Shown here: positions 7,742-32,676 of the stretch, one piece after another | How positions within the stretch are numbered: the first letter of the stretch is position 1 | Layout of the letters: every line of letters begins with the position of its first letter | Notes under the pieces: model-generated | What the model was told of the DNA's origin: nothing | What the model saw: the letters and a program-made list of their open reading frames with translations, nothing else | The model's database searches: none | Assembly: GCA_963719225.1 (NCBI GenBank) | Contig: CAVRAY010000002.1 | Coordinates: forward strand, 768,001-832,000 | Length of the DNA: 64,000 nt | Direction: 5' to 3' | Source of the DNA: Thermoanaerobaculia bacterium | GTDB taxonomy: Bacteria > Acidobacteriota > Thermoanaerobaculia > UBA5066 | Position numbers and translations under genes: made by a program

Positions 7742-7751
7742 CGGGGCGGCC

Positions 7752-11949: not shown

Positions 11950-13346
11950 GCGCCGGCGCCCGTGCCGCCTTCCTCGGCCTCCTCGCGGCGGCGCTCGCCG
12001 CGCCGCTCGCGGGCCAGCCGGTCGAGGGCGGGCCGCTCCCGGGACCGCTGCCGCTTTTCCCGGCGGACAACTGGTGGAACGTGGACGTGAGCGCCGCGCC
12101 CGTCGACCCGGCGAGCGCGGCGTTCATCGCGTGGATCGGCGCGGCGAAGGGGATGCATCCCGACTTCGGAGGCGACGCCGGAGCCCCCGCGATTTACGGG
12201 ATGCCGTACGCCGTCGTGCCCGGCACGCAGCCGCTCGAGTCCGTGGCCTTCGACTACGCGTCCGAGAGTGATACGGGCGCGCCGGGGAGGCCTGCGGGCT
12301 ATCCGATTCCGGTGGAGGCGAAGACGCAGTCCCACTGGATCGAGGGAGGCTATCCGGGAAACTGCGATTCCGCCCCGAAGACCTCCCCGTGCCGCGGCGA
12401 CAAGCACATGCTCGTCGTGGACGCGGACCGCCGGCTCCTCTTCGAGACGTGGAACACGCGCTGCCTGCCCGCGGGTTCGGCGTCGTGCGCCTGGCGCGCG
12501 GGCTCCGGGGCCGTCTTCTCCCTCGATTCGAACGCGCGGAGGCCCGCGGGCTGGACGAGCGCGGATGCCGCGGGTCTCGCGATCCTCCCCGGGCTCGTCC
12601 GGTACGACGAGGCGTACGGCGCGCAGCCCATCCGCCACGCGTTCCGGTTCACGGTCCGCGACACGAACGGCTACGTCTTCCCGGCCTCGCACGTCGCAGG
12701 CTCGAACGCGAGCGCGCCCCCGATGGGCGCGCGCCTGAGGCTCAAGGCGTCGAAGGACATCTCGGGGTTCACGGCGCCGCTCCAGCGCATCTTCCAGGCG
12801 ATGAAGACGTACGGTCTCATCGTCGCGGACAACGGCTCGGACATGTACGTGCAGGGCACCTACGACGCGCGCTGGGACAACGACGTCCTGAACCCGGCGT
12901 TCGCCGCGATCCACGCGGGCGACTTCGAGGTCGTCCAGCTCGGCTGGCAACCGTCCGCTCCGCCCGTCGCGACGACGTTCCGCGTCGTCGCCCCGTGCCG
13001 CATCCTCGACACGCGTGTTCCCGGGCTGCCGGCGTCCGGGCGCCTCGCCGCGGGAACGCAGAAGTCGTTCGTACTCGCGGGTGCCTGCGGCGTCCCCGCG
13101 GCGGCCGTCGCCCTGTCGGCGAACGTGACCGTCGTCGCGCCCTCCGGCGCGGGCGACGTCGTCGTCTTTCCCGCGGGGACCGGCGCCCCGGGAGCCTCGA
13201 CGGTCAGCTTTCCCGCCGGGCGCACGCGGGCGAACAACGCCCAGATCCTGTTGTCGTCGGACGGCACGGGGCGTGCAACGGTGAGAAACAACGCCGCTGG
13301 CGCGTTCGATCTCGTCATCGACGTCAACGGGTACTACTACGAGTAG
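11946..13346 (+). CDS. Secreted protein of unknown function with shared C-terminal domain
   Basis: GTG overlap; signal peptide; conserved-looking core FPADNWWN...GDKH...TSADAAGL.ILPGLVRYDE...HAFRFT...YGLIVADNGS; PCRILDTR...DVNGYYYE. Confidence 0.8.
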   Translation: MSAGARAAFLGLLAAALAAPLAGQPVEGGPLPGPLPLFPADNWWNVDVSAAPVDPASAAFIAWIGAAKGMHPDFGGDAGAPAIYGMPYAVVPGTQPLESVAFDYASESDTGAPGRPAGYPIPVEAKTQSHWIEGGYPGNCDSAPKTSPCRGDKHMLVVDADRRLLFETWNTRCLPAGSASCAWRAGSGAVFSLDSNARRPAGWTSADAAGLAILPGLVRYDEAYGAQPIRHAFRFTVRDTNGYVFPASHVAGSNASAPPMGARLRLKASKDISGFTAPLQRIFQAMKTYGLIVADNGSDMYVQGTYDARWDNDVLNPAFAAIHAGDFEVVQLGWQPSAPPVATTFRVVAPCRILDTRVPGLPASGRLAAGTQKSFVLAGACGVPAAAVALSANVTVVAPSGAGDVVVFPAGTGAPGASTVSFPAGRTRANNAQILLSSDGTGRATVRNNAAGAFDLVIDVNGYYYE

Positions 13347-13380: not shown

Positions 13381-14880
13381 GTGCCGTCGAAAAGGAGAGC
13401 GTCGAGAGTCGCGGAGACGGTGGAGGCTCCGGTCCGCGACAACGGGCCCGGGCGGGGCGACCTCGCCGCCGCGCTCGCGCTTGCAGCAATCATCGGATTC
13501 GTCTTCCGCGGCGGGCTCGCGAACGGGCTCGTCGGCGACGACTTCAGCCTCATCAATTACTGCCGGCTGGACGGGCTCGCGGCGGTCCTCCGGGATTTCG
13601 ACCCCGTCCGCGAGGTCTGGTATTACCGCCCGCTCACGAAGATCGTGTTCGGTTTCGCGTACGCGCTCTGGGGAACGGCCCCGTGGCCCTATCACGTCGT
13701 GAGTCTCCTCGCGCATGCCGTCGCGTCGGCGCTCGTCTATTTCGTCGCCCGACGCGCGGGAGCGTCCCCGATCCCGGCCTTCGTGGGAACGCTCCTCTTC
13801 GCCGTTCATTTCCGCAACCACGAGAGCGTGTTCTGGTTCAGCGCGATTTCGTATCCGCTCTCGACGTGCTTCGGGCTCGCGTCCGCGCTCCTGTTCCGGG
13901 CGAGCCTCGAGGAGCCCCGCCGCGGCCTGCTCGCGGGATCGCTCCTCGCATCCTTCGCCGCGATGCTCACGAAGGACACGGCCGCGGTCGTCCCCGTGCT
14001 CGCCGCGCTCTACGGGCTCCTCTTCGCCGGCGGAGGGTTCGCGCGCGCGACGCGCCGCGTCAGGCTCCGGAGCCTCGTGCCCCTCGGCCTCGTGCTGCTC
14101 CTCGGGGTCGCCCTGCAGGCCGTCCCCGTCGAGGGCAGGCCGTTCGCGCGCGGCGGCGCCGCCTTCTCGCCGAAGGGCGCGCACGCCTCGCTCGATTTCG
14201 TCGAGCGCTCCGCCGCGCTCGCGGTGCCCGGCCTCGAGTCCCTCTCCGAGGCGCCGCGGCAGGCGCTGGCGCTGGCCGCCGCGCTGGGCCTCGCCGCTTA
14301 CGCGGTCGTGCGGCGGAGCCGGCTCGCGCTCTTCGGCCTCGCCTGGGTCGTGCTCGCGCACCTCCCGTTCTACGCGTTCGTCCCGCGGATGGGAGACCTC
14401 TACCTGTACCTTCCGCTCGCCGGCGTCGCTCTGATCGCGGTCGACGCGGCGGAGCTCTCCCTGTCGCGCGTCGGGAGCGCGCTTCCGCGCGCTGCGGCCG
14501 CCCTTGCCGTGGGGACGCTCCTCGTCTGGTCCGCCGCGCGCATCGACGCGCAGGCTCTTCGCTGGAGGGCGGCGGGCGACGTCGTCAACGGCGTCGTCTC
14601 GGCCGTGAAGGAGGCCCGCCCGTCTCTCCCGCGCGGCGCGACGCTCGTCCTCGAGGGACTGCCCGACCGCGTCGGCGGCGTCTATGCGTTCAACAACGCC
14701 GTGCCCGCGGTCTTCTGGCTCGCGTATGCGGACCGGACGCTCGACATCGTCCGGCCGGAGCCCGGCGGTGGGCCCGGGGATCCCGCCGCTCCGCATTTCC
14801 TGTACGACGGCGGACGTTTCTACGAGGTCGACGGGCTCGGCCGCCGCCGGCTCCTCCGGCAGTTCGACGAGCCGGACTGA
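13381..14880 (+). CDS. GT-C-fold multi-TM glycosyltransferase (TMTC/PMT-like)
   Basis: TM1 followed by GDD...YYRPL loop, YHVVSLLAH, H.ESVFW, LTKD; about 11 TM segments. Confidence 0.7.
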   Translation: MPSKRRASRVAETVEAPVRDNGPGRGDLAAALALAAIIGFVFRGGLANGLVGDDFSLINYCRLDGLAAVLRDFDPVREVWYYRPLTKIVFGFAYALWGTAPWPYHVVSLLAHAVASALVYFVARRAGASPIPAFVGTLLFAVHFRNHESVFWFSAISYPLSTCFGLASALLFRASLEEPRRGLLAGSLLASFAAMLTKDTAAVVPVLAALYGLLFAGGGFARATRRVRLRSLVPLGLVLLLGVALQAVPVEGRPFARGGAAFSPKGAHASLDFVERSAALAVPGLESLSEAPRQALALAAALGLAAYAVVRRSRLALFGLAWVVLAHLPFYAFVPRMGDLYLYLPLAGVALIAVDAAELSLSRVGSALPRAAAALAVGTLLVWSAARIDAQALRWRAAGDVVNGVVSAVKEARPSLPRGATLVLEGLPDRVGGVYAFNNAVPAVFWLAYADRTLDIVRPEPGGGPGDPAAPHFLYDGGRFYEVDGLGRRRLLRQFDEPD

Positions 14881-14990
14881 AGGCGATGGAAAGAGCGCGC
14901 GGGGATTCGTCACTCCGGGTCGCGGCGGCACGGCCCGTGCTTTTCGGGACGAGGAATACGGGGGCCGGGCCGTGCCCGGGCGATGGAGGC

Positions 14991-16919
14991 ATGAAGACGT
15001 CCAATAAGTGTCGGTTTGCGCTCCTCGCTCTCGCCGCGCTTTGTCCGTGGCAGGCGCGGGTGTCGGAAGCCGCGTGCACGCCCGGAGGGCAGCCCTGTGT
15101 CCCCCCCGGAGCCGCAAAAACGAGTTTCCCTAAGACGGTCCCTGGACCTGGACCGACGAACATGGGAAGCACGCACGGAAAGCCGGTGATCGCGGACCTG
15201 CTGCTCACGCCCGGGCACAAGTCGGTCGTGTTCGGCAACTTCGGCGGCCAGCTCTGGGTCGTGACCACGAACGGCACGACCAGCGCCGGCATCCTCGTGG
15301 ACACGCTGCCCGCGGACGTCTACTCGACGCCGGCGATCGGCGACCTCGACGGCGACGGCCTCCCGGACATCGTCGCGGGCTACGGGTCGCTCTACGACAC
15401 GTCCAAGCCGGGCGGCTTCCGCGCTTACAAGAACCACGGGCCCGGAGCGAACCCCGTCTTCACGCAAATGTGGGATCGCCCCTCGATCGATCGCGCGCCG
15501 CCGACCGGAGTGCTCGACCCCGTCATGTCGAGCCCGGCGATCGGCGACGTGGACGGCGACGGCATCGTGGAGGTCGCCGTCGCGGGACTCGACGAGCGCA
15601 TCCACCTCGTCGACGGCCGCAACGGGAACGAGAAGCCGGGCTGGCCGTATGAGAACCAGGACACGGTCTTCTCGTCGCCCGCGCTCTTCGACCTCGACGG
15701 GGACGGGAAACTCGAGATCATCATCGGAGCGGACGACTTCCAGAACAACGGTGGGCACATCCTTGCCTTGCGCCCCGACAAGACCGAGCTTCCCGGATTC
15801 CCGATCCACACGGACCAGGCGATGTCCAGCTCGCCCGCGATCGGCGACATCGACGGCGACGGGAAGCCGGAGATCGTGATCGGCACCGGACACTTCTTCC
15901 CCGGGCGCGCCCACAAGGTCTACGCCTACCACTGCGACGGCACGCCGTTGCTCGGCTGGCCCGTGAGCGTGGACGGGGAGGTCGTGACGGCACCGGCACT
16001 CGGCGACCTCGACGGCGACGGCATCCCGGACGTCGTCGTCACCGACGACAACTCCGGCCCGAGCGGGACGTACCACGTCTACGCGTTCAAGGGGAACGGC
16101 AATCCGGTCCCGGGCTGGGCCGGCGGGCGCCAGCCGAAGGACTTCTTCGCCCAGTCGCTCGGCGTGGGCGATCCCGTCATCGCGGACATCCTGAACGGAC
16201 CCGAAGCCGAGGTCCTCGTCCCGACGAACGGCGAGATCTGCGTCTTCTCGAACACGGGGGTCCAGCTGACGGACAACGGGAACCATGTCACGGGAACGTT
16301 CACTTTCAACGTCGGTGGAACCGTCGGGGGCGTCGCCGTGGGCGACCTCGACAACAACGGCGCCGCGGTCACCGTCGTCGCGATCTCGGGCACGCCGTTT
16401 TCGGCGTATCCAAATTCGCAGGTCTACGCGTGGAACACGGGGAAGGCCGTGGGCGCCCTGCCATGGCCGCAGTTCCGCCACGACGCCCCGCACAGCGGCG
16501 TCGTGCCCGGGTCCCCAACGTGCACCCCCCGACCCGTCGTCGCAACGAAGTTCCACGCCCTCAATCCCTGCCGCGTCCTCGACACGCGACAACCCGGTTT
16601 TCCGGCGGGTCTCGGAACGCCGGTGCTCGCCGCGAGCGGCGTGAGGGTGTTCACGATCGCGAACGTCTGCGGGATCCCGCCGGGCGCCGTCTCCATCTCG
16701 GCGAACCTCACCGTCACAAACGTCACGGCGGGCGGGGAGCTCGTTGTGTACCCGTCCGATGTCGCCCGGCCGGGCACCTCGTCCCTGAGCTTTCACGCCT
16801 TCAGGACCCGCGCGAACAATGCGATCCTGTACCTCTCGACCGCTTCTATGTTCTCTGTTTTCAACAATTCGGCGGGATCGGTCGATTTCGTACTTGACGT
16901 CAACGGGTACTTCCAATGA
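14991..16919 (+). CDS. Secreted FG-GAP/VCBS-repeat beta-propeller protein with shared C-terminal domain
   Basis: Signal peptide; up to ~8 repeats (some degenerate) of the type SPAIGD(L/V/I)DGDG.P(D/E)IV; WPQFRHD; PCRVLDTR...DVNGYFQ. Confidence 0.85.
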   Translation: MKTSNKCRFALLALAALCPWQARVSEAACTPGGQPCVPPGAAKTSFPKTVPGPGPTNMGSTHGKPVIADLLLTPGHKSVVFGNFGGQLWVVTTNGTTSAGILVDTLPADVYSTPAIGDLDGDGLPDIVAGYGSLYDTSKPGGFRAYKNHGPGANPVFTQMWDRPSIDRAPPTGVLDPVMSSPAIGDVDGDGIVEVAVAGLDERIHLVDGRNGNEKPGWPYENQDTVFSSPALFDLDGDGKLEIIIGADDFQNNGGHILALRPDKTELPGFPIHTDQAMSSSPAIGDIDGDGKPEIVIGTGHFFPGRAHKVYAYHCDGTPLLGWPVSVDGEVVTAPALGDLDGDGIPDVVVTDDNSGPSGTYHVYAFKGNGNPVPGWAGGRQPKDFFAQSLGVGDPVIADILNGPEAEVLVPTNGEICVFSNTGVQLTDNGNHVTGTFTFNVGGTVGGVAVGDLDNNGAAVTVVAISGTPFSAYPNSQVYAWNTGKAVGALPWPQFRHDAPHSGVVPGSPTCTPRPVVATKFHALNPCRVLDTRQPGFPAGLGTPVLAASGVRVFTIANVCGIPPGAVSISANLTVTNVTAGGELVVYPSDVARPGTSSLSFHAFRTRANNAILYLSTASMFSVFNNSAGSVDFVLDVNGYFQ

Positions 16920-17004
16920 GGATGCGTGGGGTACCGTCACTACCGGGTGAAATCGTCGGCACAGAGTCCGCGTCTCATCCATGCAAATTCGCAGGAGGCA
17001 GGTC

Positions 17005-17469
17005 ATGAGTCAGTTCCCGACCAAGAGCGCGCTTTTTATCGCTGCGGGCTTCGTCGTTGCCGGCGCGTTCGCCAATCGGGCGCAGGCGCAGACGGGCCTC
17101 CAGTTCTACGCGGTCACCCCGTGCCGCGCCGCGGACACGCGGACCGGCTTCGGCGGGATCCTTCCTGCCTCGACCTTGCGCAACTTTACGATCAAGACCG
17201 TGTGCGGCGTGCCGGCCACCGCCAAGGCCGTCGCGATCAACGTGACGGTCGTGACGCCGAATGCCGACGGCTTTTTCTTCGTCTGGCCGGCCGGCGGCGC
17301 GGTTCCCCCGGTCTCCACGATCAACTTCAACGCCGGCGAGCCCGCCATCGCGAACGGAGCGATCGTGCCCCTCGCCGTGGGGACCCCGGATCTCTCGGGC
17401 GCGTACGGCACCGCGAGCGGTTCCGGCACGGCGCACGTCGTCCTCGACGTAACCGGCTATTTCCAGTAA
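17005..17469 (+). CDS. Small secreted protein consisting only of the shared domain
   Basis: AGGAGG RBS; signal peptide ending AQA; FYAVTPCRAADTR...CGVP...NVT...INF...ANGAIV...DVTGYFQ. Confidence 0.88.
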   Translation: MSQFPTKSALFIAAGFVVAGAFANRAQAQTGLQFYAVTPCRAADTRTGFGGILPASTLRNFTIKTVCGVPATAKAVAINVTVVTPNADGFFFVWPAGGAVPPVSTINFNAGEPAIANGAIVPLAVGTPDLSGAYGTASGSGTAHVVLDVTGYFQ

Positions 17470-17492
17470 GGCACCGGTCGACCGAGCGGGCT

Positions 17493-17514
17493 CCCGGGGG
17501 CACGGCTCCCCGGG
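17493..17514 (+). other. GC-rich hairpin after the stand-alone domain gene (mRNA stabiliser or attenuator candidate)
   Basis: CCCGGGG...CCCCGGG stem, no U-tract. Confidence 0.35.
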
Positions 17515-17532
17515 CGGCCTGACTCTCTGAGC

Positions 17533-19482
17533 ATGCGAGCCCGGCTGACCGCCGGGCTCTTGCTTTTGGTCTCCCTGGGCGTCCAGGCCGCGCTCCTCTT
17601 CTCGTCCCGGATCCCGTGGAGCTCCGACCAGGCGGTCGTCGGGCTCATGGCGCGCCACATCCTCGAGGGGCGCGGCCATCCCGTCTTCTACTACGGCGCG
17701 ACGTACGCGGGCTCGCTGGAGGCGCACGGCGTCGCCGCCGTTTTTGCCCTCCTCGGGGCGACACGCGCCGCGTATTCGGTCGCGATGGTGCTGCTCGCCC
17801 TCGCGATCGTGGCGGGCGCATCTCACGTCGCGCTAAGGGCGTTCGGGTGGCGCGCCGGGCTCGTCGCTCTCGCATATCTCGCGCTTCCGCCCTTCTTCCT
17901 CCTCTACAAGGCGCTCACGTCGGACGGGGCGTACGACTCCGTGGCCCTCGTCGCGATCGGGCACCTCCTGGCTGCGCTCGCGATCGAGGAGCGCTCCGCG
18001 GCGGGAGGCTCCACACTTCTCGCCTTCGCGGCGCTCGGTCTCGCGGCGGGGCTCGGCCTCTGGGTGACGCCCCTGTGCCTTCCCCTCACCGCGGCCGCCG
18101 TCTTGTGGGTGTGGGTCCGCGGGCTCGCGCGACCCCGATCCCTCCCGCCGTTCGCGGCCGGCGCCGCCCTCGGCGCGCTGCCGTGGATCATCTGGAACGC
18201 GCGGCACGGCTGGGCGAGCCTGCGGGCGGAAGAGGCGGGACACGTCGACCTCGCGGGCCTCCTCGCGAACGCGAAGGGCTTCGTGACCGTTAGTCTTCCG
18301 ATCCTCACGGGCGCCGCCCGCCCGAACCACCTACCCGGCTCGCCTGAGGAGCCGTTCCCGGGCGCGTCCGTCCTCGCGCCGCTCGCGCTTCTTCTCCTCG
18401 TCGCGCCGGTCCTCGGGCGCCTGAGGCGCGACGGGCGGGTCCTGCTCGGCGTCCTCGCCCTGGCCGCGGTCACGGGCGCCGCCCTCCTCTCGCGGCGCGT
18501 CTCTCCGGCCGAGCCGCGCTATTTCATGGCGGCGTACGTGGTCGTGCCCGCCCTCCTCGGGGCCGCCGCGGACTGGTGGCTTGCCACGCGGCGCCGGACG
18601 CTCGCCGCGCTCGCCGCCGGTCTGCTCCTCGTCGTCACGCACGTCGGGGGCTACGCGCGCGCGACCGTCCACGGGCCCGTCGTGGATGACGCCCAGGTCA
18701 CGGGCCCGCTCGACGCCCTCATCGGCGCGCTGCGGCGTCTCGGCGTGCGACGCGTCTGGGCGAGCTACTGGATCTCCTACCGTCTCGCCTTCGAGACCGG
18801 CGAGTCGATCCTCGCGTCGCCTCTCGGGGCCGAGGACGTCGTGCGCATCCCCTCGTACGCGGCCGCCGTGAAGGCGGCGTCCGACGCGGCCGTCGTGACG
18901 CTTCCTCCGCGGACCGCCTGCTTCGCGGGCTGGCTCGACGAGCGCGGCGTGCCCGCGGTCCGCACGACGGCGGGCGCGTTCACGATCTTCTCGTCCCTGC
19001 CCGTTTCCGTTCTCACGACCCTCGACGCCGGCGAGAGCCTTCCACTCCCCGCGAGCGCGGAGCGGGTCGCGTGGCGTCTCCTCGGGGCCTCGCGGGCGGC
19101 GGACGGACGATCACTGACGCTCGACGCCGAGCTTCGCAACACGGGGCCGTGCCTCTTCACGCACGCGGTCTCGATCGCGTCCTCCTCCGCAGCCGCCGGC
19201 GGAGAGTGGTCCGGGGATGCGGACACGCACCAGCCGAACGCGCGCCTCGCGCCGGGCGAGACCGTACGCGTCAGGGTCACGGTGCCGTTGCCCGACGAGA
19301 AGCGCGGCGCCCGCGTTCGCCTTCGGCTCGAGCATCGGGCGACCGGCCTTTTCCCGGGCGATGGAGCCCCGCTCGTCGTCGCGGCGGACGGCGCGGACGT
19401 CAGTCCCGGAAGGCCGGAAGGAGACGGGCCAGGACAGGCCCCGGTAGCAGCCGCCACGGCGCCGCGCGCGGCCGGCCGATGA
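17533..19482 (+). CDS. GT-C (ArnT/PMT-like) membrane glycosyltransferase with C-terminal Ig-like domain
   Basis: SDQAVVGLMARHILEG..PVFYYGATYAGSLEA loop after TM1, many TMs, EPRY, ASYWISYRLAF; C-terminal LRNTG...LAPGETVRVRVTV. Confidence 0.72.
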   Translation: MRARLTAGLLLLVSLGVQAALLFSSRIPWSSDQAVVGLMARHILEGRGHPVFYYGATYAGSLEAHGVAAVFALLGATRAAYSVAMVLLALAIVAGASHVALRAFGWRAGLVALAYLALPPFFLLYKALTSDGAYDSVALVAIGHLLAALAIEERSAAGGSTLLAFAALGLAAGLGLWVTPLCLPLTAAAVLWVWVRGLARPRSLPPFAAGAALGALPWIIWNARHGWASLRAEEAGHVDLAGLLANAKGFVTVSLPILTGAARPNHLPGSPEEPFPGASVLAPLALLLLVAPVLGRLRRDGRVLLGVLALAAVTGAALLSRRVSPAEPRYFMAAYVVVPALLGAAADWWLATRRRTLAALAAGLLLVVTHVGGYARATVHGPVVDDAQVTGPLDALIGALRRLGVRRVWASYWISYRLAFETGESILASPLGAEDVVRIPSYAAAVKAASDAAVVTLPPRTACFAGWLDERGVPAVRTTAGAFTIFSSLPVSVLTTLDAGESLPLPASAERVAWRLLGASRAADGRSLTLDAELRNTGPCLFTHAVSIASSSAAAGGEWSGDADTHQPNARLAPGETVRVRVTVPLPDEKRGARVRLRLEHRATGLFPGDGAPLVVAADGADVSPGRPEGDGPGQAPVAAATAPRAAGR

Positions 19483-21085
19483 GCCTTTCGGGCGCGTAGC
19501 CGTCGGCCCGGATCGTCAACGGCGCGCCCTCGTCCCCGCGCCGTACGAGGCGGTAGCGCCCCTCCAGCGTGTGGAACGCGGCAACGACGAGGTCCTCGTA
19601 GCGCACGACGTGGCCGGGGCACGTCCCGGCGTCGAAGCAGGGCTTCTCGGCGTCCACCCAGCAGCGCAGGCCCTGATCCTCGACCTTGCACCCGCCCGGG
19701 GCCCCGGGCGTCCAGCGATAGGTGTTCATCGCGAGGTCCGGCGTGTCGTCGTAGAGGAGCCGGACCCACGCCCGCATGATGTAGTCCGCCTTCGTCGCGT
19801 GCCACCCGGGGTCCTCCGGCATGAAGAGGACCAGGCTCGCACCGGGTCGCACGGAAGGAACGGCCTCGAGGAGAGACGAGAGCTCGCGGCGGTGGTCCCG
19901 CCACGAGGACAGGTAGTAGTCCTGCCGCTCGACGGACCCCGCCGCACCGAATCCGACGAATACGGCCGCGAGGGCCCAGCCGAAGACGACGAACCGGCTC
20001 CTCACGAGGGCGTCGACCGCGACCCCGAGCCCCGCGGACACGAACACGCGCGACAGGAGGTGTGTCCGGTAGAACGTGTCGGAGAAGTGGACAGACGCGA
20101 AAGCAACGTTCGACGCGGCGCCCATCGCGACCAGGACGCCGAGCGACGCGAGCGCCCGCCAGCCCGCGCCGCCGCGCGGGGACGCGCCGGAGAGGTGCCG
20201 GGCCCGGGCGAAATAAAGGACCAGACAGACGGCCGCGACCGCGATCCAGAGCACGACGGGCACGACGGGGCGGCGGCGTGCCGAACTCCGGCCGATCGAG
20301 GGACCACTGCCACGGCAGGACGTTGTTCAGGAGGAGGATCAGGGCGCGGAACGCGTGCTGGGCGGGCGTCAGGTGCAAGTTCGCCGCCGCGGCATAGCTC
20401 ACCGGACTCAGCATGAATCGCGTGAACGTGACGACGTACGGCAGGATGGCGAGTCCGCTGGCCGCGAAAACGACGAATCGCCGCGGCCACGTGCCCGGCG
20501 CGACGACGAAGAGGATCGGGACGAGGACGAGCGCCGGCGCGGCGACGTCGATCGTGTACACGCTCACAAGGAGGCTCGCGAGCGCGCCCGCGAGGACGAG
20601 GCCGGAACCGCCGTCGAGGAACCGGAGGGTCCCGACGAGGAACAGCACGAGGCCGAGGACGGCGAGGTCGTACTCGGCGGCGACGAGGCTCGTCGTGAGG
20701 AAGTCGCTCGATGCGCAGATCGTGAGCGCACCGGCCGAGAACGCCGCGAGGGGACGGCCGGGGAAAAGCGTCCTCACGAGCGCGGCCGCCGCGACGCCGA
20801 TCCCGAGCCATGTCAGGAGGTGGATCACGTGCAGGGCCTCGACGCGATACCCGGTCAGCTCGGCCAGGAGGGACGGCGCCCCGAGAAGGAGACGCGTCGG
20901 CGCTCCCATCGGATGGACGAGAGCAGCGAGGAGCCCGAGGCGCGCGCGCGTGTCGTGCGCGAGCGCGAGGATGTTCGCGTCGTCCTGCCAGAACCCGCAG
21001 TCGAAGGCGAACAGCCCCTGGACGAGGAGCGTCAAGGCCGCAAAGCCGACGAGGTCCCTCCGCGACGGGTCCGAACCCTTAACAT
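19400..21085 (-). CDS. GT-C-like multi-TM protein (frameshifted, start uncertain)
   Basis: GFWQDD loop after TM1, ~10 TMs across ORFs 18777..21224 and 19400..20263, soluble C-terminal region. Confidence 0.6.
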
Positions 21086-21091
21086 CGGCCC

Positions 21092-21576
21092 GTGACGCCG
21101 TTCCGCCGTGCGACGCTCGCCCTGCTTCCGTTCGCGTTCGTTTCATGCGTGCGTGTTCGCTTCGTTCCGGCGCTGCCGGCCGAGGCATTTTCCGCCCGGC
21201 TCTCGATCGTCTCGTCGCCCGCATCGGTGGCGACGGGCGCGCGTTTCACGGTGCCCGTTCTCGTGGAGAACCGCAGCCGGGTCGCGTGGCCTCGCGCCGC
21301 TGGACGTCCGAGGGCCGAATCCTGTCCGCCTCGTACCACTGGAGGACCGGGGACGGCTCGATGGCCGTCCACGACGGACTGAGGACTCCCCTGAGGACCG
21401 CCCTCGGACCCGGGGAGCAGACCCGCGTTTCCCTGGCGGTCGCGGCTCCCTCCCGGCCGGGCGGCTACGTGCTGGAGGTGGATCTCGTCCAGGAAGGCGT
21501 CGCCTGGTTTTCCGACCACGGATCGCCGGTGGCCCGGGCGGCCGTGCGCGTGGAAGATCACTCCGTCACTCCTTGA
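21092..21576 (+). CDS. Putative lipoprotein with one Ig-like domain (frameshift ~21305)
   Basis: Signal with lipobox-like FVSC; FTVPVLVENRS..W; LSASYHW; LGPGEQ.RV.L; PGGYVLEVDLVQEGVAWFS. Confidence 0.65.
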
Positions 21577-23551
21577 CGAAACCTATCCGGAAGACCTCGA
21601 CGGAGAGCTCCCGAGTGTCGCGGGACCCCGCGAGCACGCCGGCGGGGCGCCACGTGGAGCGCGACGCGAGCACGATGAGGACGGGCGTCTCCCGGTACCG
21701 AGTCCAGAATTCCTCCGGGACGGCGAGGTCGTAGGCGCTCCACGCGGATCCCTCGGGGCGGATCGTGCCGAGACGTTCGGGACTCCCGCCCGCATCGTCC
21801 TCGAGGGAAACGTCGATCACCGGTACGGGCACGGGCGGCCGCGCCGCCGCAAGCGCGTCGACCGGGCACGCGAACTCGACCCTCAGTTTCGGCGCGGCGA
21901 GAACGGCACGGACGACGCCGCGCGTTCCCATCCACCGTGTCGGCTGCGACCACGCGTAAAAGCCGGAGACGACGTCCGCGTCCTGCGCGGAGATCACGAA
22001 GTCCACGATGCCCGGGCGATGGAGATCGCGGATCTCGCCGTTCTCGACGGCGAACCAGGGCGTCTCGCCCGTCGCGCGGGCCCAGGCGTCGAAGACCCGG
22101 TTCAGGATCGAGGCGTCGCGCACACCGACCGGCCCGCGGGCGAGGACGAGACGGGGCGTCGGGCGCCGGTTCGAGATCGTGAGGAGAAAGCGTGTCGAGA
22201 TCCGTCCGTTGTGGATCTCGGGGAAGAAGAGGTTCGTGTCGGGGACCGCGAGCGCGGGCGCGTCGGGCGGAAGAGCGCGTGCCGCGTCCGCGAGCATCCC
22301 CGCGAGACGCGTGAGCGTCGCGAGTCGCTTCTCGTGCGCCGCGTAAACGTCCCAGGACACCCTCGAGAGCATCGCTCGGCGGTGGAGGAGCGTCTCCAGC
22401 CCGAGCGCCGCGAACCCGATCGAGACCAACGCGAGGGCGAGCCGGCGATTCGCGCGGAGCCGCTCGCGGATCGTCGCGACGGCTGCGGCGGCGAGGAGCG
22501 CCGCTGGCATGAGCAGCGGAAAGAAGTAACGGTCCCCGTCGAACAGCTCCTCGTATGGGTAATTCCATCGCGCGACGCCGACGAGCGCGAGGAAGCCGAT
22601 CCCGGCGGGGAGCGTCGCGAGCGCCGCAACGGCGCCGCGGCGCGAGGCCGGCGTCAGGACGGCGAGGAGGACGGCCGCCGCGGCGAGCACGATGAGGACT
22701 CCGAAAGCCGACTCCATCTTCGGGAACCATTCCGTGACGCCGAGCGGACGCACGACGCTCGGCCCGGGGAAGAGGTAACGGAACGGCGCGGCACACGCGA
22801 GGAATGCGAAGCGCTTCAGCGCCGCGATCGGCTCCGTGTGGAGCGCGACCCCGGTGAGGCGCGTGTAGAAAAGGCGCGTCGCGAACAGCGCGAGTCCGGC
22901 GGCTGAGACGAGGAACGCCTCGAGTCCCGAGACGAGCCGTCGGTCTCCGGTGCGCCGCCTCTCGGCGACGGACAGGAAGAACGGAGCGGAGAGGAGGGGC
23001 ACGAGCGAGTTGTCGCAGGCAAGGGCGAACACGCAGCCGGCGGCGGCGAGCAGGCCCGCGCGCCGGCGCCCGAGCGTGTCCGCGTAGACGATCGCGGCGA
23101 GGGCCCCCGTTACGCCCGCGATCCCGATCGGAACGCAGCCGCCGCTCGGGAACCAGAGCCACATCGAGGAGAAGCCGCAGGGCAGGACGTAGAGGACCCC
23201 GGCGGCGAGGCCCGCGACGTCGTCCCTCAGGAGACGGCGGGCCGCGAGCGCGAGGAAGAGCGCCGAGAGAACGTGCGAGGCGAAGACGAGGAGGCGCAGC
23301 GGCGTCGCGTTCGTCCCGAAGAGAGTCGCGCTCGCGGTCAGGAGGAGGCGCAGAACGGGAACGAAGTGCTCTCCCTGCGGCCTGAAGAGGACCGTCCAGA
23401 ACCCCGCCCGGCCCGCCAGGACGTCGGCGGCGTGGTTGAGGTAGTCGATGTCGTCGTAGGCGTACCCGTTCCCGAACGTCGGCCCGTAGAGGAACACTCC
23501 GACCAGCGCGGCCGACGAGAACGCGAGGAGGCCGAACCGGCGGCTCGTCAC
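21566..23551 (-). CDS. GT-C-fold multi-TM glycosyltransferase with periplasmic C-terminal domain
   Basis: GYAYDDIDY...PQGEHFVPVLRL after TM1; DRYFF; C-terminal RWMG...SRDTRELSVEV. Confidence 0.68.
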   Translation of the reverse strand: MTSRRFGLLAFSSAALVGVFLYGPTFGNGYAYDDIDYLNHAADVLAGRAGFWTVLFRPQGEHFVPVLRLLLTASATLFGTNATPLRLLVFASHVLSALFLALAARRLLRDDVAGLAAGVLYVLPCGFSSMWLWFPSGGCVPIGIAGVTGALAAIVYADTLGRRRAGLLAAAGCVFALACDNSLVPLLSAPFFLSVAERRRTGDRRLVSGLEAFLVSAAGLALFATRLFYTRLTGVALHTEPIAALKRFAFLACAAPFRYLFPGPSVVRPLGVTEWFPKMESAFGVLIVLAAAAVLLAVLTPASRRGAVAALATLPAGIGFLALVGVARWNYPYEELFDGDRYFFPLLMPAALLAAAAVATIRERLRANRRLALALVSIGFAALGLETLLHRRAMLSRVSWDVYAAHEKRLATLTRLAGMLADAARALPPDAPALAVPDTNLFFPEIHNGRISTRFLLTISNRRPTPRLVLARGPVGVRDASILNRVFDAWARATGETPWFAVENGEIRDLHRPGIVDFVISAQDADVVSGFYAWSQPTRWMGTRGVVRAVLAAPKLRVEFACPVDALAAARPPVPVPVIDVSLEDDAGGSPERLGTIRPEGSAWSAYDLAVPEEFWTRYRETPVLIVLASRSTWRPAGVLAGSRDTRELSVEVFRIGFVKE

Positions 23552-25314
23552 GTCGGGCTCACGATCCGCACGAGGGCGTTCCGAGGAGACCCGGGAGCGA
23601 CGAGGCCGCTCCGCTCGCCACGCGCGGGCCGGGGCGCGTAGGAGGAGACGTCGAAGGCGGCCACCGCGAGACCGAGGCCGAGGGCGAGCGGAAACGAACG
23701 CAGCGAGATTCGCGCCAGGAGGAGTCCGAGGCACGCCGCCAGCAGAGGGAAGACGAAGAGAAGGGAGCGCGGCGCCGGGCCGGGCCCCGGATCGGCCCCC
23801 GAGGCGACGCAGGACACGAGGGTGAGCGCGCCCGCGAGGCCGAGCGGCGCGAGACCCTGGGCGACGGTGCGGCCGCGCCGGAGCGCTTCCGGGAAGGGGC
23901 GTAACGCGAGGCCGGCGGCGGCGAGGTACAGGGCCGCGAGCGCCAGCGCGGCCGGGCGCCGCCAGGCATCGAACGGCGCGGCGCCGGCCGCCGGGTCGAC
24001 CGCGGCGACGAGTTCAGGGAGCCGGACCGTGGCGAGCCGCTCCAGGGTCACGAAGCGGTCCCCGGAGCGCGCGGCCGGCCCTGTCTCGGTGCCGTGCACG
24101 CCGGTGACGAGCCACGGAGCCGCCCCGAGCGCGAATCCGGCTGCCGCGAACGCGACGGCCCGAACGGCGCCGCGGCCGCCGTGCCGCGGGCGCGCCACGA
24201 GGAGGAAGCCGGGCACGGCGAACGCGAAGGCATCGGCCGAGCTCCAGGCGGCGAGCCCGGCTGCGACGCCGAAAAGAGCCGGCAGCATGGCCGAGCCCTC
24301 GCGTTCGCGCGACTCGGCGGCGACCCAGAGCGCGGCCAGCCCGAGAAGCAGGGCCTCCGGAGGGCCGTCCGGCGGCGAGGTCCCGCGCAGAGGGGACGGC
24401 GAGGGAAACGCGAAGACGAGGAGCGCGAAGCACGCCGCCTGGCGCCCCGCGAGACGCCGGACGAGGAAGAAGAAAACGAGGAGCAAGAGGAGCCACGGGA
24501 GAATCGGCGCCACCGCGGCCGCGCCTCGCGGAACGCTTTCGGACGCGCGAGCGGCGTACGGGGTCGCCCGGAGCGCGACGCCGCCCGCGAGGCCCGCGAG
24601 CGCGAACAGGCTCCACCCGTCCCAGCGCGAGGAGAGGAGCGCGAGGTAGCTCCCGCTCGTCGTGAGGATGTGCATCTTCGAGACGCCGTGAACGCGTACC
24701 GTGAAGCGGATCGGCACCTCGACGATCGTGTGTCCCTTCCGGGTCGCGTTGATGAGGAGTTCCGGCAGGAACGCGAAGTTGTCGTTGCGGAACGCGAGGC
24801 CGCGGAGCACCCCGGCGCGGTAGACGCGGAAGCCCGACGTCTTGTCGCGCGTCTCGAGGTTCCAGAGGAAGCGCATTGCGGCGTTCATCGAGGTGCTCAG
24901 GACCCTCTTCCAGAGCGGGATGCCGATCACGGAGCTCCCGTGAACGAAGCGCGAGCCGACGACGATGTCCGCGCCGGACCTCTCGAGCGCCGCGAGGAGC
25001 TCCGGGATCTCTTCGGGCTGGTGGTTGAGGTCGGCGTCCATCGTGACGACGACGTCCGCGTCGGCGCGGACGGCCGCGAAGCCCCGCCGGAAGGCCGCGC
25101 CGAGACCGGAGGGCTCCGCGCGGTAGAGGACCTTCACGCGGGGAACCTTCCGGGCCACCTCCTCGAGCGCCTCGCGCGTTCCGTCCGTCCCCTCGACGAC
25201 GTAGAGGAGCTCCCAGTCAACGCCGAGGCCGTCGAGCGTCCGCCGGAGCCGCTCCGTCAGCGGGCCCACGTTCCCGCGCTCGTTGTAGGCGGCGATGACG
25301 ACGGAGACCTTCAT
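23548..25314 (-). CDS. DPM1-like polyprenyl-phosphate glycosyltransferase (GT2) fused to a membrane domain
   Basis: VVIAAYNE, GLGAA, TMDADLNHQP, GSRF, DKTSGFRVYR, EVPIRF..R.HG.SK; hydrophobic C-terminal half. Confidence 0.85.
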   Translation of the reverse strand: MKVSVVIAAYNERGNVGPLTERLRRTLDGLGVDWELLYVVEGTDGTREALEEVARKVPRVKVLYRAEPSGLGAAFRRGFAAVRADADVVVTMDADLNHQPEEIPELLAALERSGADIVVGSRFVHGSSVIGIPLWKRVLSTSMNAAMRFLWNLETRDKTSGFRVYRAGVLRGLAFRNDNFAFLPELLINATRKGHTIVEVPIRFTVRVHGVSKMHILTTSGSYLALLSSRWDGWSLFALAGLAGGVALRATPYAARASESVPRGAAAVAPILPWLLLLLVFFFLVRRLAGRQAACFALLVFAFPSPSPLRGTSPPDGPPEALLLGLAALWVAAESREREGSAMLPALFGVAAGLAAWSSADAFAFAVPGFLLVARPRHGGRGAVRAVAFAAAGFALGAAPWLVTGVHGTETGPAARSGDRFVTLERLATVRLPELVAAVDPAAGAAPFDAWRRPAALALAALYLAAAGLALRPFPEALRRGRTVAQGLAPLGLAGALTLVSCVASGADPGPGPAPRSLLFVFPLLAACLGLLLARISLRSFPLALGLGLAVAAFDVSSYAPRPARGERSGLVAPGSPRNALVRIVSPT

Positions 25315-26000
25315 CTCGGCTTGCGGGCGACGACGACGAGGTGGATGAAGAGGTCCCGCGGCCCGAAGGACAGCGTGACGGGCTCGAGTCCCGTCCCCTC
25401 GAGCATCGCGGCCGCGTGCGCGCGCGAGCGGAGCCGGTTGACCTCGTCCGGGAAGAACCGGAACGGCGCGCCGGGCCGCGACCTCAGCGCCTCGACGGGT
25501 GCGAGAACGAGCCTCGAGCTCCCGAATTCCGGCGGCCAGAAGAGGAGCGCGACCCCGCCCGGCCGCAGGACGCGCGCGAACTCGGCAAGCAGGGTGCGGC
25601 CCTCCTCCGGCGCGAAGTGCTCCATGACGCCGAGATTCCAGAGTCCGGCGACGGAGCCGTCCCGGAACGGCAGGCGGAAGAGATCGCCCTGAAGGAGGCC
25701 TCGGAAGACGGGCACGCGGCGCGCGGCCACCACGGCGAGCCGCGAGATGTCCATCGCGACGAGCGTCCGCCCCCGGGGGTCGATCCGCGACGACGACTCG
25801 GCGGTTCCGCAGCCCGCCTCGACGAGGACCCCGTCCTCCGGAAAGTGCGCGTCCGCGAACGCGCGGACGGCGCGGCTCAGGAGCTCCGTGCGGACGAGGG
25901 AGGCGATCCGGCCGAACAGCGAGTTCCGCCCGCTGAGAGCGGCCCAGTGGTCGTTCCAGACGCGCGCGTCGTCGCGCGAGGCGCCGTCAGGTGCGGGCAT
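25311..26000 (-). CDS. Class I SAM-dependent methyltransferase
   Basis: LVEAGCGTA, GDLFRLPF.DGS, GVMEHF, RVLRPGG. Confidence 0.85.
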   Translation of the reverse strand: MPAPDGASRDDARVWNDHWAALSGRNSLFGRIASLVRTELLSRAVRAFADAHFPEDGVLVEAGCGTAESSSRIDPRGRTLVAMDISRLAVVAARRVPVFRGLLQGDLFRLPFRDGSVAGLWNLGVMEHFAPEEGRTLLAEFARVLRPGGVALLFWPPEFGSSRLVLAPVEALRSRPGAPFRFFPDEVNRLRSRAHAAAMLEGTGLEPVTLSFGPRDLFIHLVVVARKPR

Positions 26001-26955
26001 CCGGGCCCTCGGCGCCTCCGCTTCCCCCCGGCACGCGCGCCTCGACGACGTACCGCGGGCGTCGGCGCGTCTCGTCGAGGTTGCGCCACAGGTATTCGCC
26101 GATCATCCCCATGACGAGCAGCTGCGCGCCCGACACGACGAGCAGCACGATCATGAGAGAGGCCCAGCCCTGCACCTTCAAGTCGAAGGCGAAGTGGGCG
26201 AAGACGATGAAAAGCGCGTACAGGAGCCCGGCGACCGAGACGAAAAGGCCGAGGAGAGAGGCCGCCCGGATCGGGACGTACGAGAACGCGACGAACGAGT
26301 CGATGAAATACTTGACCTTGCGGCCGAAGCCCCACATCGACTTCCCGTACCGCGCGTCGCGCGCGAGGCGGCGGAACGGGACGACCGCGGGGTCGAAGCC
26401 GAGCCAGAGGACGAGCCCCATGAGGTAGGCGTTGCTCTCCTGGATCCCGAGGAGGAGGTCTCGCACGGTGCGGTCGACGACGAAGAAGTCGAACCCGCCC
26501 TCCGGCATCGTCGCGATCGCGTACCGGCGGAACAGGCGGTAGAAAATGCTGGCGAGAAACGCGGTCGCGGGTGGGTCGTCGCGCCCCTCGCGCGCCGCGA
26601 GGACGACCCTCTTTCCGCCGCGCCAGAGCGCGAGCATCGCGTCGAGCGTCTCGGGAGGGTCTTGCAGGTCGGCGGAGATCGTCGCGACGGCGTCCCCGTC
26701 CGCTTCCGCGAGCCCCGCGAGAAGCGCCGCGTTCGAGCCGAAGTTGCGCGAGAGCTTCACGGCCGTGACGCGCGGCTCGGTCGCGGCAAGCGCGAGGAGG
26801 ACCGCGAAGGACTCGTCCTTCGAGCCGTCGTCCACGAACACGAACCGGAACGCGTCGAGAGGGTGCCGGCCCGCGAGCGCCTGCAGGCGCGCGAGGAGGT
26901 CGGGCAGGCTCGCGGCGTTGTGGAAGACGGGAACGACGACCGAGATTCTGCTCAT
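25987..26955 (-). CDS. GT2 undecaprenyl-phosphate glycosyltransferase (ArnC/GtrB/YkoT-like)
   Basis: VVVPVFHN, VDDGSKD, LSRNFGS, SADLQDPP, two C-terminal TMs, GEYLWR...RPRY. Confidence 0.9.
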   Translation of the reverse strand: MSRISVVVPVFHNAASLPDLLARLQALAGRHPLDAFRFVFVDDGSKDESFAVLLALAATEPRVTAVKLSRNFGSNAALLAGLAEADGDAVATISADLQDPPETLDAMLALWRGGKRVVLAAREGRDDPPATAFLASIFYRLFRRYAIATMPEGGFDFFVVDRTVRDLLLGIQESNAYLMGLVLWLGFDPAVVPFRRLARDARYGKSMWGFGRKVKYFIDSFVAFSYVPIRAASLLGLFVSVAGLLYALFIVFAHFAFDLKVQGWASLMIVLLVVSGAQLLVMGMIGEYLWRNLDETRRRPRYVVEARVPGGSGGAEGPDART

Positions 26956-27695
26956 GCGAAATGGCGGAGGACGGCCGCCCGGTCCTCCGCCGAGACCTCC
27001 CGGACGGCTCGCGCGGGGATCCCGGCGACGACCGACCAGTCGGGGACGTCGTGCGTGACGACGGCGCCGGCCGCGACGATCGCGCCGACGCCGACCGTGA
27101 TTCCGGCCGCGAGGTTCGCGCCGGTCCCGACGAGGGCGAACCGGCGGATCCGCGGGCCGCGCGCCTCCCATGGGGCGAGACCGAATCGTCGCAGGTAGAC
27201 CTCGTTGTCGTTCACGGTCAGGACGCCGGGACCGATGAAGACGTCCTCCTCGATCTCCATGTTTCCCGTCAGGATCGCGCCGTCGATGACGCGCGTCCGC
27301 GCGCCGATCGTCGTGTCGTACATGACGAGGACGCCGCGCCCGAGGACGACGTCCTCGCCGATGCGGCAGCCTTCGCGCACGGAGGCGAGGTCGCCGACCA
27401 TCGCCCGCGCGCCGAACGTCGACCCGGTGTAGAGAACGGCGTTCGCGCCGACGACGCAGCGCGCGCCGAGAACGAGCGCCCCGGGCGCGGCCGGGACGGG
27501 CCGCGTCGTGTTCCCGGTCGTCATCGGCGGGCGGCCGAGAACGGCGCCGTCGTGGATCGTCGAGCCGTCCCCGACGGACACGTCCGCGTGGATCGTCACG
27601 TGGCGGCCCAGCGAGACCCCGACGCCGAGACGTGCCTCAGGCGAAACCGCGGCGTCGCCGGCCGGCGTCGGGATCGCCTCGGGACGTGTCGTCAT
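26952..27695 (-). CDS. Hexapeptide-repeat (LbH) sugar acyltransferase
   Basis: Hexapeptide repeats, EDVFIGPGV...ND, GAVVTHDVP..SVVAGIPAR. Confidence 0.85.
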   Translation of the reverse strand: MTTRPEAIPTPAGDAAVSPEARLGVGVSLGRHVTIHADVSVGDGSTIHDGAVLGRPPMTTGNTTRPVPAAPGALVLGARCVVGANAVLYTGSTFGARAMVGDLASVREGCRIGEDVVLGRGVLVMYDTTIGARTRVIDGAILTGNMEIEEDVFIGPGVLTVNDNEVYLRRFGLAPWEARGPRIRRFALVGTGANLAAGITVGVGAIVAAGAVVTHDVPDWSVVAGIPARAVREVSAEDRAAVLRHFA

Positions 27696-30549: not shown

Positions 30550-30813
30550 GCCTTCTCCCGGGGCGGGAGACGCTTCCAGAGGAGCGCCATCTCGGGCGCG
30601 ACGTCCGCCCGCGTCATCTCGATCGTCTCGTGCCAGCCCTCGAGGCGGAAGGGCGCATCGGCGACGCCGTCGCCGCCGCGCGCGAGCGCGAGCGCTGCCT
30701 CGAGAGGCAGCGCCCTCAGCGACGCCGCCTCGCGCGCGGAGAGCTCGCGCACGAGCGCGCGCAGCTCCGCGGCCTCCTTCCGGAGCCTGCTCGAGCTCGG
30801 AGGACTCGCTCAC
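30546..30813 (-). CDS. Small hypothetical protein (probable frameshift)
   Basis: GTGA overlaps with both neighbours inside the operon. Confidence 0.45.
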
Positions 30814-31073: not shown

Positions 31074-31110
31074 CGGTCAAGTATAGGCGGCGGGATGGGC
31101 CGGTTCCCGG

Positions 31111-32588: not shown

Positions 32589-32676
32589 GCGGTCCGTTCC
32601 GCGGGCAGGATCGAGCCCTCGGCCCGCGCGTGTCAAGCGACGCCGCCCACGAACGGACCCGGCTACACTGCCGCCC

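Follow-up and report, generated by a model that had tools for sequence, protein, structure and literature searches.

We analyzed a 64,000-nucleotide stretch of DNA from a Thermoanaerobaculia bacterium (GenBank assembly GCA_963719225.1, contig CAVRAY010000002.1, positions 768,001 to 832,000; hereafter the window) that holds a set of predicted membrane glycosyltransferases, GT-C1 to GT-C5, among genes for secreted proteins that share one domain. A gene that we call the stand-alone subunit encodes this domain by itself; the other carriers are referred to as cargo, and their run of adjacent genes as the cargo array. The reading that we favor, with confidence and doubt about evenly balanced, is that the GT-C enzymes decorate an exported glycan and that the shared domain binds that glycan. 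Most of the five GT-C enzymes likely decorate exported polysaccharide, and the domain, which probably trimerizes, may anchor about thirty secreted proteins to it. The pairing of GT-C enzymes with donor synthases is already known; what is new is the presence of GT-C families without an assignment and of a tie, conserved among relatives, to a surface domain that has no name.

That tie is made by GT-C2, which starts 64 bases past the stand-alone gene. A search of 185,579 genomes gave 105 GT-C2 loci, of which the best 80 were compared: 38 of Thermoanaerobaculia type, 6 from other Acidobacteriota, and 36 from other phyla. A domain gene lies directly upstream of GT-C2 in 24 of the 38 Thermoanaerobaculia loci and somewhere in the flank in 34; of the four loci without one, three had short flanks. 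None of the 42 relatives outside Thermoanaerobaculia has the domain beside it. The 38 loci form one clade with support of 99, and direct adjacency occurs in both of its deep branches, in a tree built with FastTree, which is weaker for long branches. A battery of GT-C enzymes is by itself fairly ordinary, there being dozens of GT-C genes per genome in this group; the GT-C2 clade is a rare case in which gene order indicates a candidate partner. The principal genes are as follows.

13381..14880, + strand: GT-C1, flanked by cargo 3 and the FG-GAP cargo; N-terminal half TMTC-like (DD, YRP, H..HE, K); PMT_2 match at E 2e-4, below cut-off
17005..17469, + strand: stand-alone subunit, signal peptide followed by the shared domain alone; eight-stranded β-sandwich in the AlphaFold model
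17533..19482, + strand: GT-C2, predicted GT-C(A) transferase with a periplasmic α/β domain (YWxxY) and a C-terminal NBR1-like Ig domain
19400..21146, − strand: GT-C3, QDD in the first loop; GT-C family without an assignment; split by a frameshift near 20265
21566..23551, − strand: GT-C4, with YDD, EH, and DRY motifs and a soluble C-terminal domain; GT-C family without an assignment
23548..25314, − strand: DPM1-like synthase (GT2, E 1e-26) fused to a degenerate GT-C5

Linkage of the GT-C genes to the shared domain

In terms of gene content, the shared domain was matched in 49 of 151 genomes of the class, about a third of the sample (43 with a single query; both tallies count the unpublished genome G004 as one positive). 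Full-length GT-C2 is present in 9 of the 151, all of them domain-positive, with one further fragment at a contig end. As the full-length gene is found in nine genomes only, 40 of the 49 domain-positive genomes lack it, and some of these carry more than 20 domain copies. In a distant family, the stand-alone gene, GT-C2, a methyltransferase, a GT2, a TPR protein, wzm, and wzt form an operon with no cargo nearby. Among the GT-C2 relatives from other phyla, 14 of 36 have DPM1/GtrB-like neighbors and 0 of 36 have a domain neighbor; 8 of 10 outside genomes with such relatives are without a domain match. Relatives are common in records from Actinomycetota, Chloroflexota, and Dormibacterota, and those in monoderm phyla were placed in polysaccharide clusters.

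One relative of GT-C2 (locus L153; compared loci, genomes, and contigs are numbered L, G, and C) carries a carbohydrate-binding F5/8 module in place of the C-terminal Ig domain, and in L037 a methyltransferase bears this Ig domain as a fusion. The NBR1-like Ig domain ends other membrane-protein clades as well, one of them DUF2079 (L220:4795-6696, L093:9286-11793, L103:11176-13371, L133:2619-4763). These proteins adjoin arrays or wzm, three of their genomes are without full-length GT-C2, and they are possible functional substitutes for it.

The linkage observed for GT-C2 is not shared by the other GT-C genes. GT-C1 has no ortholog in any of the 10 congeners searched (10/10) and is missing from a second copy of the locus in the same assembly (C2:5-35 kb, C2 being the contig that contains the window), which served as an in-assembly comparison. 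Its distant relatives (E 1e-11 to 1e-18) occur in 24 other genomes, 19 of which are without a domain match; the sole true ortholog, in L109, lies inside an array. GT-C3 was found in 20 of the 151 genomes, 17 of them domain-positive (one weakly), and is full length in G141 (one contig, 98% complete), which has no domain match. GT-C4 was found in 8 of the 151 and in 0 of 10 congeners. In 20 of 37 places with GT-C3 or GT-C4, picked as not already seen beside an array, the surrounding stretch contains the domain once (1/20), wzm in 6/20, and a DPM1-like gene in 8/20. The GT-C1/3/4/5 set and the donor cassettes (DPM1 with methyltransferase; GtrB with acyltransferase and epimerase) vary from genome to genome among congeners and between the two copies in the assembly.

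These distributions bear on the pathway put forward in the preliminary description, in which all four GT-C enzymes then recognized would act stepwise on the domain proteins, GT-C1 priming as a TMTC-like O-mannosyltransferase. Because relatives of GT-C1, GT-C3, and GT-C4 mostly lie far from the domain or in domain-free genomes, such a pathway is unsupported, and we regard it as highly improbable. The position of GT-C1 inside the cargo operon, both here and in L109, would fit it, as would the TPR-bearing TMTC-like proteins among GT-C1 relatives and the Pro/Thr-rich linkers of some cargo. The supposed primer is, however, absent from all congeners searched and from the second copy, GT-C1 is without four TMTC hallmarks (below), and GT-C3 and GT-C4 are unlinked to the domain elsewhere. 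Of the four enzymes, GT-C2 is the one that keeps its link to the stand-alone gene in distant Thermoanaerobaculia.

Fold and family membership of the GT-C enzymes

The four multispanning proteins with acidic first-loop motifs were found where they had been reported, including the one inside the cargo array (GT-C1) and the one directly after the stand-alone gene (GT-C2). GT-C1 has GDD at 13534-13542 (residues 52-54) and YYRPL at 13621-13635 (YYRP, residues 81-84); GT-C2 has SDQA at 17623-17634, GLMA, and YAGSLE at 17704-17721; GT-C3 has WQDD at 20979-20990 (− strand); and GT-C4 has YDD at 23450-23458 and GEHFVP at 23357-23374 (− strand). Hydropathy indicates 7, 9, 4+5, and 10 transmembrane-like segments in GT-C1 to GT-C4, respectively, and the first-loop Asp is conserved in 83-100% of each family.

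The AlphaFold model of GT-C2 (predicted local distance difference test score, pLDDT, 77) returns GT-C enzymes as all of its top structure matches: ALG12 and ArnT (Z 24.2), Pmt4 (23.5), STT3(A) (23.3), and AglB (22.6). As these Z scores tie, the fold cannot name the acceptor. Orthologs of GT-C2 exceed the PMT_2 Pfam cut-off. Profile comparisons with hhalign connect GT-C1 to GT-C4 (probability 98.5%), GT-C1 to GT-C3 (97.5%, 425 columns), GT-C2 to GT-C4 (95.8%), and GT-C1 to GT-C2 (92.2%), with the negative controls, Wzm and a flippase, at 1.1% at most. The genome has 30 PMT_2 matches; compared with ten strong ones, GT-C1 to GT-C4 score 96.9, 98.1, 30.2, and 96.6%. The assignment of GT-C3 is the least direct, as it reaches 30% with the PMT_2 set and is joined through GT-C1 only. 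We assign all four proteins to the GT-C(A) superfamily, GT-C2 by its modeled fold, GT-C1 and GT-C4 by profile, and GT-C3 via GT-C1. These fold and profile matches uphold the earlier proposal that the proteins are GT-C enzymes, for which polyprenyl-phosphate-sugar synthases supply the donors.

When solved structures were searched by profile, the GT-C2 and GT-C3 alignments gave nothing significant, and the GT-C1 alignment retrieved TPR proteins only, owing to its TPR-bearing relatives. A Pfam scan of 11 GT-C3 and GT-C4 relatives gave no family, and the Atlas neighbors of GT-C4 are unnamed, or PMT_2 in 12% of members. By these profile criteria, GT-C3 and GT-C4 are GT-C families without an assignment that match no Pfam family.

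A fifth member, GT-C5, is a paralog of GT-C2 fused to the DPM1-like synthase, the fusion measuring 588 aa in the window and 741 aa in the second copy. In-frame losses (window 23548-24620, − strand) have removed the first catalytic loop, a YMPNGYPE stretch, and the entire periplasmic domain; the membrane helices are kept. From these losses we read GT-C5 as a pseudoenzyme tail, which could be a retained anchor, a donor-handling module, or a product of decay.

The WWDYG motif of oligosaccharyltransferases is absent from all four GT-C families, including 45 of 45 GT-C2 sequences, all of which have YWxxY (45/45); by a secondary-structure reading of the model, YWxxY appears to occupy the position of WWDYG. 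Matches to PF02516 (STT3) are located elsewhere in the genome and not in GT-C2; a weak one of 25.7 bits, just above the cut-off, lies at C1:432041-432583 (− strand) beside a PMT_2 gene and a GT2. With neither WWDYG nor an STT3 Pfam domain, GT-C2 was rejected as an STT3 member.

The likeness of GT-C1 to the TMTC1-4 proteins, judged against the motif table of PMC7801869 (Table 4, the part of that paper used here), held in part. GT-C1 shares the first-loop DD of motif M1, the YRP of M2, and the lysine of M4 (KDT). The SHKS part of M2, the RxD of M3, the DW/DUF1736 of M5, and the ERxxY arginine of M7 are absent, the last reading GDLYLY in both the window and L109; the arginine of external loop 5 (EL5) is replaced. 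GT-C1 has no Pfam match to a TPR domain, which is present in its relatives L065, L071, and L073. Lacking RxD, DW/DUF1736, the ERxxY arginine, and TPR, it was rejected as a TMTC member.

The shared domain, the exported glycan, and competing acceptors

The shared domain occurs 32 times, in 32 genes, in the assembly. It ends at most 4 residues from the stop codon in 219 of 233 distinct copies, and in Thermoanaerobaculia it is a single, C-terminal copy. Two genes have it at the N-terminus (C1:2745697-2747126 and C1:3688405-3690396, both − strand), and in the first of these short, Val-Thr-Ser-rich, fiber-like repeats follow. The domain belongs to no Pfam or NCBIfam family, and its Atlas neighbors, in Acidobacteriota and Actinomycetota, are unnamed only. 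A literature search found neither the domain nor the locus described, a weak negative as subscription papers and supplements were outside its scope; a paper on isopeptide domains (PMC12617251) was considered and, from its excerpted text, set aside as unrelated.

The stand-alone subunit (125 residues) is modeled with a pLDDT of 96 as an eight-stranded β-sandwich, for which the best structural match is the Bd2133 fiber tip (Z 9.8, root-mean-square deviation 2.7, 107 aligned residues, 9% identity). XepA, Pgp3, a BclA head, and carbohydrate-binding modules rank next at a Z of about 7, where matches may be generic. According to passages of PMC10769870, the Bd2133 tip forms a trimer. In two monoderm genomes (G153 and G157, one an actinomycetote and one a dormibacterotal genome), four of four full proteins have exactly three tandem copies of the domain, and there is one further partial match. 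In these triple-repeat proteins (L234-L236 of G157; G153:C112), the domains are found at either end or make up most of the protein. Taken with the modeled fold, the domain is probably a trimeric module. The likeness to Bd2133 and to the TNF/C1q-like trimeric heads (same passages) lies in fold and C-terminal position; at 9% identity, and with no fiber shaft in most carriers, the shared fold shows no function.

The genes around the stand-alone subunit point to a surface glycan. Because the minus-strand operon continues into GT2/GT4 genes and wzm (with wzt in relatives), we regard the locus as an ABC-exporter surface-polysaccharide cluster. Within stretches of up to 20 kb, 21 of the 33 stand-alone loci (in 21 of the 27 genomes) include a glycan gene, compared with 17 of 193 background tiles and, among scattered cargo genes on the main contig, 1 of 20; this contrast is overstated because the queries derive from the window locus and kin are not independent. 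By Pfam, stand-alone genes elsewhere adjoin differing glycan pathways, with wzm/wzt, a Wzx or MurJ-like flippase, or PMT_2-GT2 fusions. In another family, PMT_2 membrane proteins adjoin the stand-alone gene in L014, L015, L022, and L028, three of them fused to a C-terminal GT2. One stretch (L025-L026, G028:C2:628000-668000) is an array of 12 or more genes with the domain; it includes two stand-alone copies and a protein with transmembrane and TPR segments, and ends at a MurJ-like flippase and a Wzy_C gene. Scattered cargo genes show no significant proximity to PMT_2 genes within 5 kb (2/19, p 0.24) or 10 kb; within 20 kb the count is 8/19 (p 0.03, uncorrected for three thresholds).

On the preferred reading, of decoration and binding of an exported glycan, each step past gene identity and linkage is our inference. 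The GT2-GT4 fusion and GT4 would build a backbone linked to undecaprenyl diphosphate (Und-PP), probably an O-antigen because the genome has lipid A genes (lpxB, waaA, lpxC), and Wzm/Wzt would export it. The DPM1-like enzyme with the methyltransferase would make one undecaprenyl-phosphate (Und-P) monosaccharide and the GtrB-like enzyme with the acyltransferase and epimerase another, and from these polyprenyl-phosphate donors the GT-C enzymes would add side-branch sugars to the exported glycan in the periplasm. GT-C1, GT-C3, GT-C4, and GT-C5 could be exchangeable cassettes that give serotype-like variants, with GT-C2 as the constant member, whose branch or cap, likewise constant, may be the epitope read by the domain. 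Single-domain cargo would be made up to trimers by stand-alone subunits, and the trimeric domain would bind the finished glycan, holding stand-alone and cargo proteins on the cell surface. A glycan-reading trimeric anchor of this kind would give diderm soil bacteria, a group with barely studied envelopes, a display system like CWB2 or SLH.

Several observations weigh against this reading. The adjacency of the stand-alone gene and GT-C2 persists in loci that no longer have the cargo array (L127-L132, L171, L182), which on our analysis looks like a substrate-enzyme pair. With queries taken from the window locus, 12 of the 33 stand-alone loci show no glycan gene. The domain has a near-invariant N-x-T, the sequon being present in 226 of 233 copies (N 98%, T 88%). 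GtrA (PF04138) has no match in this 97% complete genome. The cluster has no Wzy_C ligase, so GT-C2 could itself be the transferase of an exported chain, and the fold of GT-C2 fits glycan-, lipid-, and protein-acting enzymes equally well.

These points lead to the main competing proposal, in our view rather unlikely, namely that GT-C2 acts on the domain as a protein glycosyltransferase or oligosaccharyltransferase, placing a sugar or a Wzm/Wzt-exported chain on the stand-alone and cargo proteins at N-x-T or at Ser/Thr, with GT-C1/3/4/5 varying the glycan in a diderm analog of the S-layer clusters. The gene adjacency in both deep subclades is what such a pair would predict; the operon of the distant family resembles the slg clusters as presented in excerpts of PMC2943079; STT3 and AglB match the whole GT-C2 model including its periplasmic domain; and YWxxY apparently stands in the place of WWDYG. 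WWDYG itself is nevertheless missing throughout, most domain-positive genomes are without full-length GT-C2, and most outside genomes with its relatives are without the domain.

The sequon gives similarly divided evidence. It is intact in 100 of 103 domains from GT-C2 genomes versus 103 of 132 from genomes without GT-C2, a comparison in which 60 of the copies were chosen among top-scoring hits and kin are not independent; its Thr shows the largest difference among 28 conserved columns. Within the window's own family the difference is gone (79/82 versus 39/42), and a single genome (G028, the L025-L026 stretch) contributes 13 of the 29 losses. The sequon sits mid-strand in the sandwich, and in the Actinomycetota repeats its N is often replaced by D, E, or H. 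A comparison of 21 stand-alone subunits beside GT-C2 with 27 others gave no clean Ser/Thr/Asn column specific to the former. The stronger version of the proposal, that GT-C2 represents a new class of bacterial protein glycosyltransferase transferring a Wzm/Wzt glycan to the domain N-x-T to form a domain-directed glycoprotein coat, we consider improbable. If true, the domain would bring the stand-alone protein and about thirty secreted enzymes together as glycosylated parts of a modular coat on Thermoanaerobaculia, a surface-display route unlike the PglB, PglL, or slg pathways. Whether the acceptor of GT-C2 is glycan or protein is decidable with one small expressible protein.

A further alternative is that the GT-C enzymes decorate a surface glycan and the domain genes merely share an envelope island by smpB, with no biochemical link. 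Within the window's family, the block of lpxC, an HD-domain gene, smpB, the array, and the glycan genes is inherited as a unit, as co-location would predict, and scattered cargo does not lie close to the many PMT_2 genes of the genome. Stand-alone genes of other families and orders are, however, found beside different types of glycan cluster, and stand-alone genes also adjoin GT-C2 in other genomic surroundings; co-location alone is in our view decidedly unlikely.

The preliminary description had offered lipopolysaccharide (LPS) decoration as its alternative; taken as decoration of a surface glycan, this fares better than the stepwise pathway once wzm/wzt and the GT2/GT4 genes past 26955 are considered. 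An ArnT-like modification of lipid A or the LPS core could draw on the lipid A genes noted above, on ArnT as a tied best fold match, and on the 148 bits of the GtrB-like gene on the ArnC model. Among the 22 locus proteins scanned, however, the ArnT model reaches 14.6 bits (cut-off 567), ArnC 147.5 (529), and ArnA 34 (777). GT-C2 relatives are moreover common in Actinomycetota, Chloroflexota, and Dormibacterota, lineages that are generally without LPS. Lipid A modification was rejected with all three models far below their curated cut-offs, and we give it hardly any credence.

Comparison with known systems places the locus nearest to three-component periplasmic O-antigen glycosylation, as described in parts of PMC11127046 (GtrABC; Klebsiella galactosylation of ABC-exported O-polysaccharides; Citrobacter GT136). 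Shared features are a synthase and a GT-C enzyme in a wzm/wzt cluster, an accessory binding domain on the GT-C enzyme, and swapping from strain to strain; GT136 is a GT-C enzyme with an attached carbohydrate-binding module that decorates ABC-exported O antigens. The present locus differs in its up to five GT-C enzymes, two donor cassettes, and a synthase fused to a GT-C, in having no GtrA-family flippase found, in its interleaved secreted-protein genes, and in GT-C3 and GT-C4, which fall outside Pfam. No flippase was found among the locus genes, and the genome-wide search was for the GtrA type.

With the slg clusters of Geobacillus stearothermophilus and Paenibacillus alvei, as far as excerpts of PMC2943079 describe them, the locus has in common a surface-protein gene by wzm/wzt, GT2/GT4 genes, a methyltransferase, and, in one lineage, a TPR protein. 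Those clusters use a Wzy_C protein transferase (WsaB/WsfB) and an initiating WsaP in the same excerpts; neither a Wzy_C protein nor a WsaP-type initiator is among the 22 locus proteins, the cluster end being lost at an assembly junction (below), and the five Wzy_C matches in the genome are all on another contig. In contrast to the slg systems, the host is a diderm, and the subunit is only 125 residues long and has no known lattice. The CWB2 and SLH modules offer a further parallel, one module across many secreted enzymes with genes beside a polymer locus; in PMC4973711, three tandem CWB2 repeats are needed and bind PSII, which is made by a proposed adjacent locus. The shared domain has no sequence match to these modules and is an all-β sandwich that, in Thermoanaerobaculia, is C-terminal and single-copy with a separate stand-alone gene.

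Neighboring genes and assembly quality

The remaining genes of the locus were delimited by codon-position analysis, by which real genes were told from shadow open reading frames in this window of 70% G+C.

8524..10264, + strand: cargo 1, secreted M12-type metallopeptidase with C-terminal shared domain (Pfam Reprolysin_5, E 1e-17); several frameshifts, four frames when aligned to its second-copy ortholog
10261..11949, + strand: cargo 2, secreted, zinc-metallopeptidase-like, with proline linker and shared domain (domain hidden Markov model; weak M10/M12 matches below cut-off)
11946..13346, + strand: cargo 3, secreted, no Pfam family, plus shared domain
14991..16919, + strand: cargo 4, secreted FG-GAP repeats (FG-GAP_3, E 3e-26) plus shared domain
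21092..21576, + strand: small Ig-like lipoprotein with the same Ig-like domain as the GT-C2 tail; frameshift near 21290, intact in the L002 and L003 orthologs
25311..26000, − strand: S-adenosylmethionine (SAM) methyltransferase (Methyltransf_11, E 1e-14), which accompanies the DPM1-like gene in L031, L112, L120, L126, and L133
25987..26955, − strand: GtrB/ArnC/PgfS-like GT2 with two C-terminal transmembrane helices (PgfS 188 bits, cut-off 500; ArnC 148 bits, cut-off 529)
26952..27695, − strand: hexapeptide-repeat sugar acyltransferase (Hexapep, E 6e-21; NeuD/PglB/VioB subfamily 93 bits, below cut-off)
27707..28696, − strand: NAD-dependent epimerase/dehydratase (Epimerase, E 2e-49)
28693..30549, − strand: soluble GT2-GT4 fusion, likely backbone polymerase; frameshifted; kept in L001-L004, L016, and L019
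30546..32588, − strand: two small genes, a frameshifted GT4, and a further small gene, with second-copy orthologs and conserved with the cluster; the small genes have no Pfam match
32689..33340, + strand: wzm ABC permease (galactan Wzm/RfbD model, E 4e-11), the match ending at residue 218 of 274

The two GT2 proteins, the methyltransferase, the acyltransferase, and the epimerase named in the preliminary description all score above Pfam cut-offs. Its gene map required correction in five respects: the frameshift in GT-C3, the DPM1-GT-C5 fusion, the Ig-like lipoprotein gene, the minus-strand orientation, and the start of the operon outside 13381..26955. GT-C3, GT-C4, and the synthases all lie on the minus strand and converge on the cargo operon; their operon begins beyond 26955 with GT4, the small conserved genes, and the GT2-GT4 fusion, divergent from wzm (to about 33340). 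In the second copy and in relatives, wzm is followed by wzt (wzm/wzt loci: L035, L036, L016). An 815-aa open reading frame at 18777-21224 was rejected as a single gene, its second half being out of frame.

At least 10 apparent frameshifts interrupt otherwise intact genes (window 8524-10264, 19400-21576, 28693-32189, and 32269-32805), a pattern consistent with long-read insertion and deletion errors. A scan of the window returned 0 promoters and 13 terminator-like sites versus 7.2 ± 3.5 by chance, which is uninformative, and no transfer RNA or transfer-messenger RNA was found in the window.

The assembly is 97% complete and 6% contaminated, and C2 contains an inverted collinear duplicate of about 200 kb (C2:5000-230000 versus C2:600000-801000, roughly 60-90% amino-acid identity) that includes the housekeeping genes smpB and lpxC and a two-component pair. 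Window positions 1-33340 are part of the second of these segments. Those homologs whose records name a source belong to Acidobacteriota/Thermoanaerobaculia. Because the inverted copy is orthologous and carries housekeeping genes, the contig appears, from sequence comparison, to be chimeric and to merge two related organisms. Near window position 33340, wzm is interrupted, an opposite-strand ABC transporter gene overlaps it, the genes beyond are unrelated, and the G+C content declines from 0.71 to about 0.64; this position is a probable chimeric assembly junction. At the other end of the locus, lpxC, the HD-domain gene, and smpB (window 4928-8267) lie upstream of the cargo array, as they do in many relatives. 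Past the junction, the gene at 35148-36593 encodes a protein that we take to resemble the benzoyl-CoA oxygenase BoxB.

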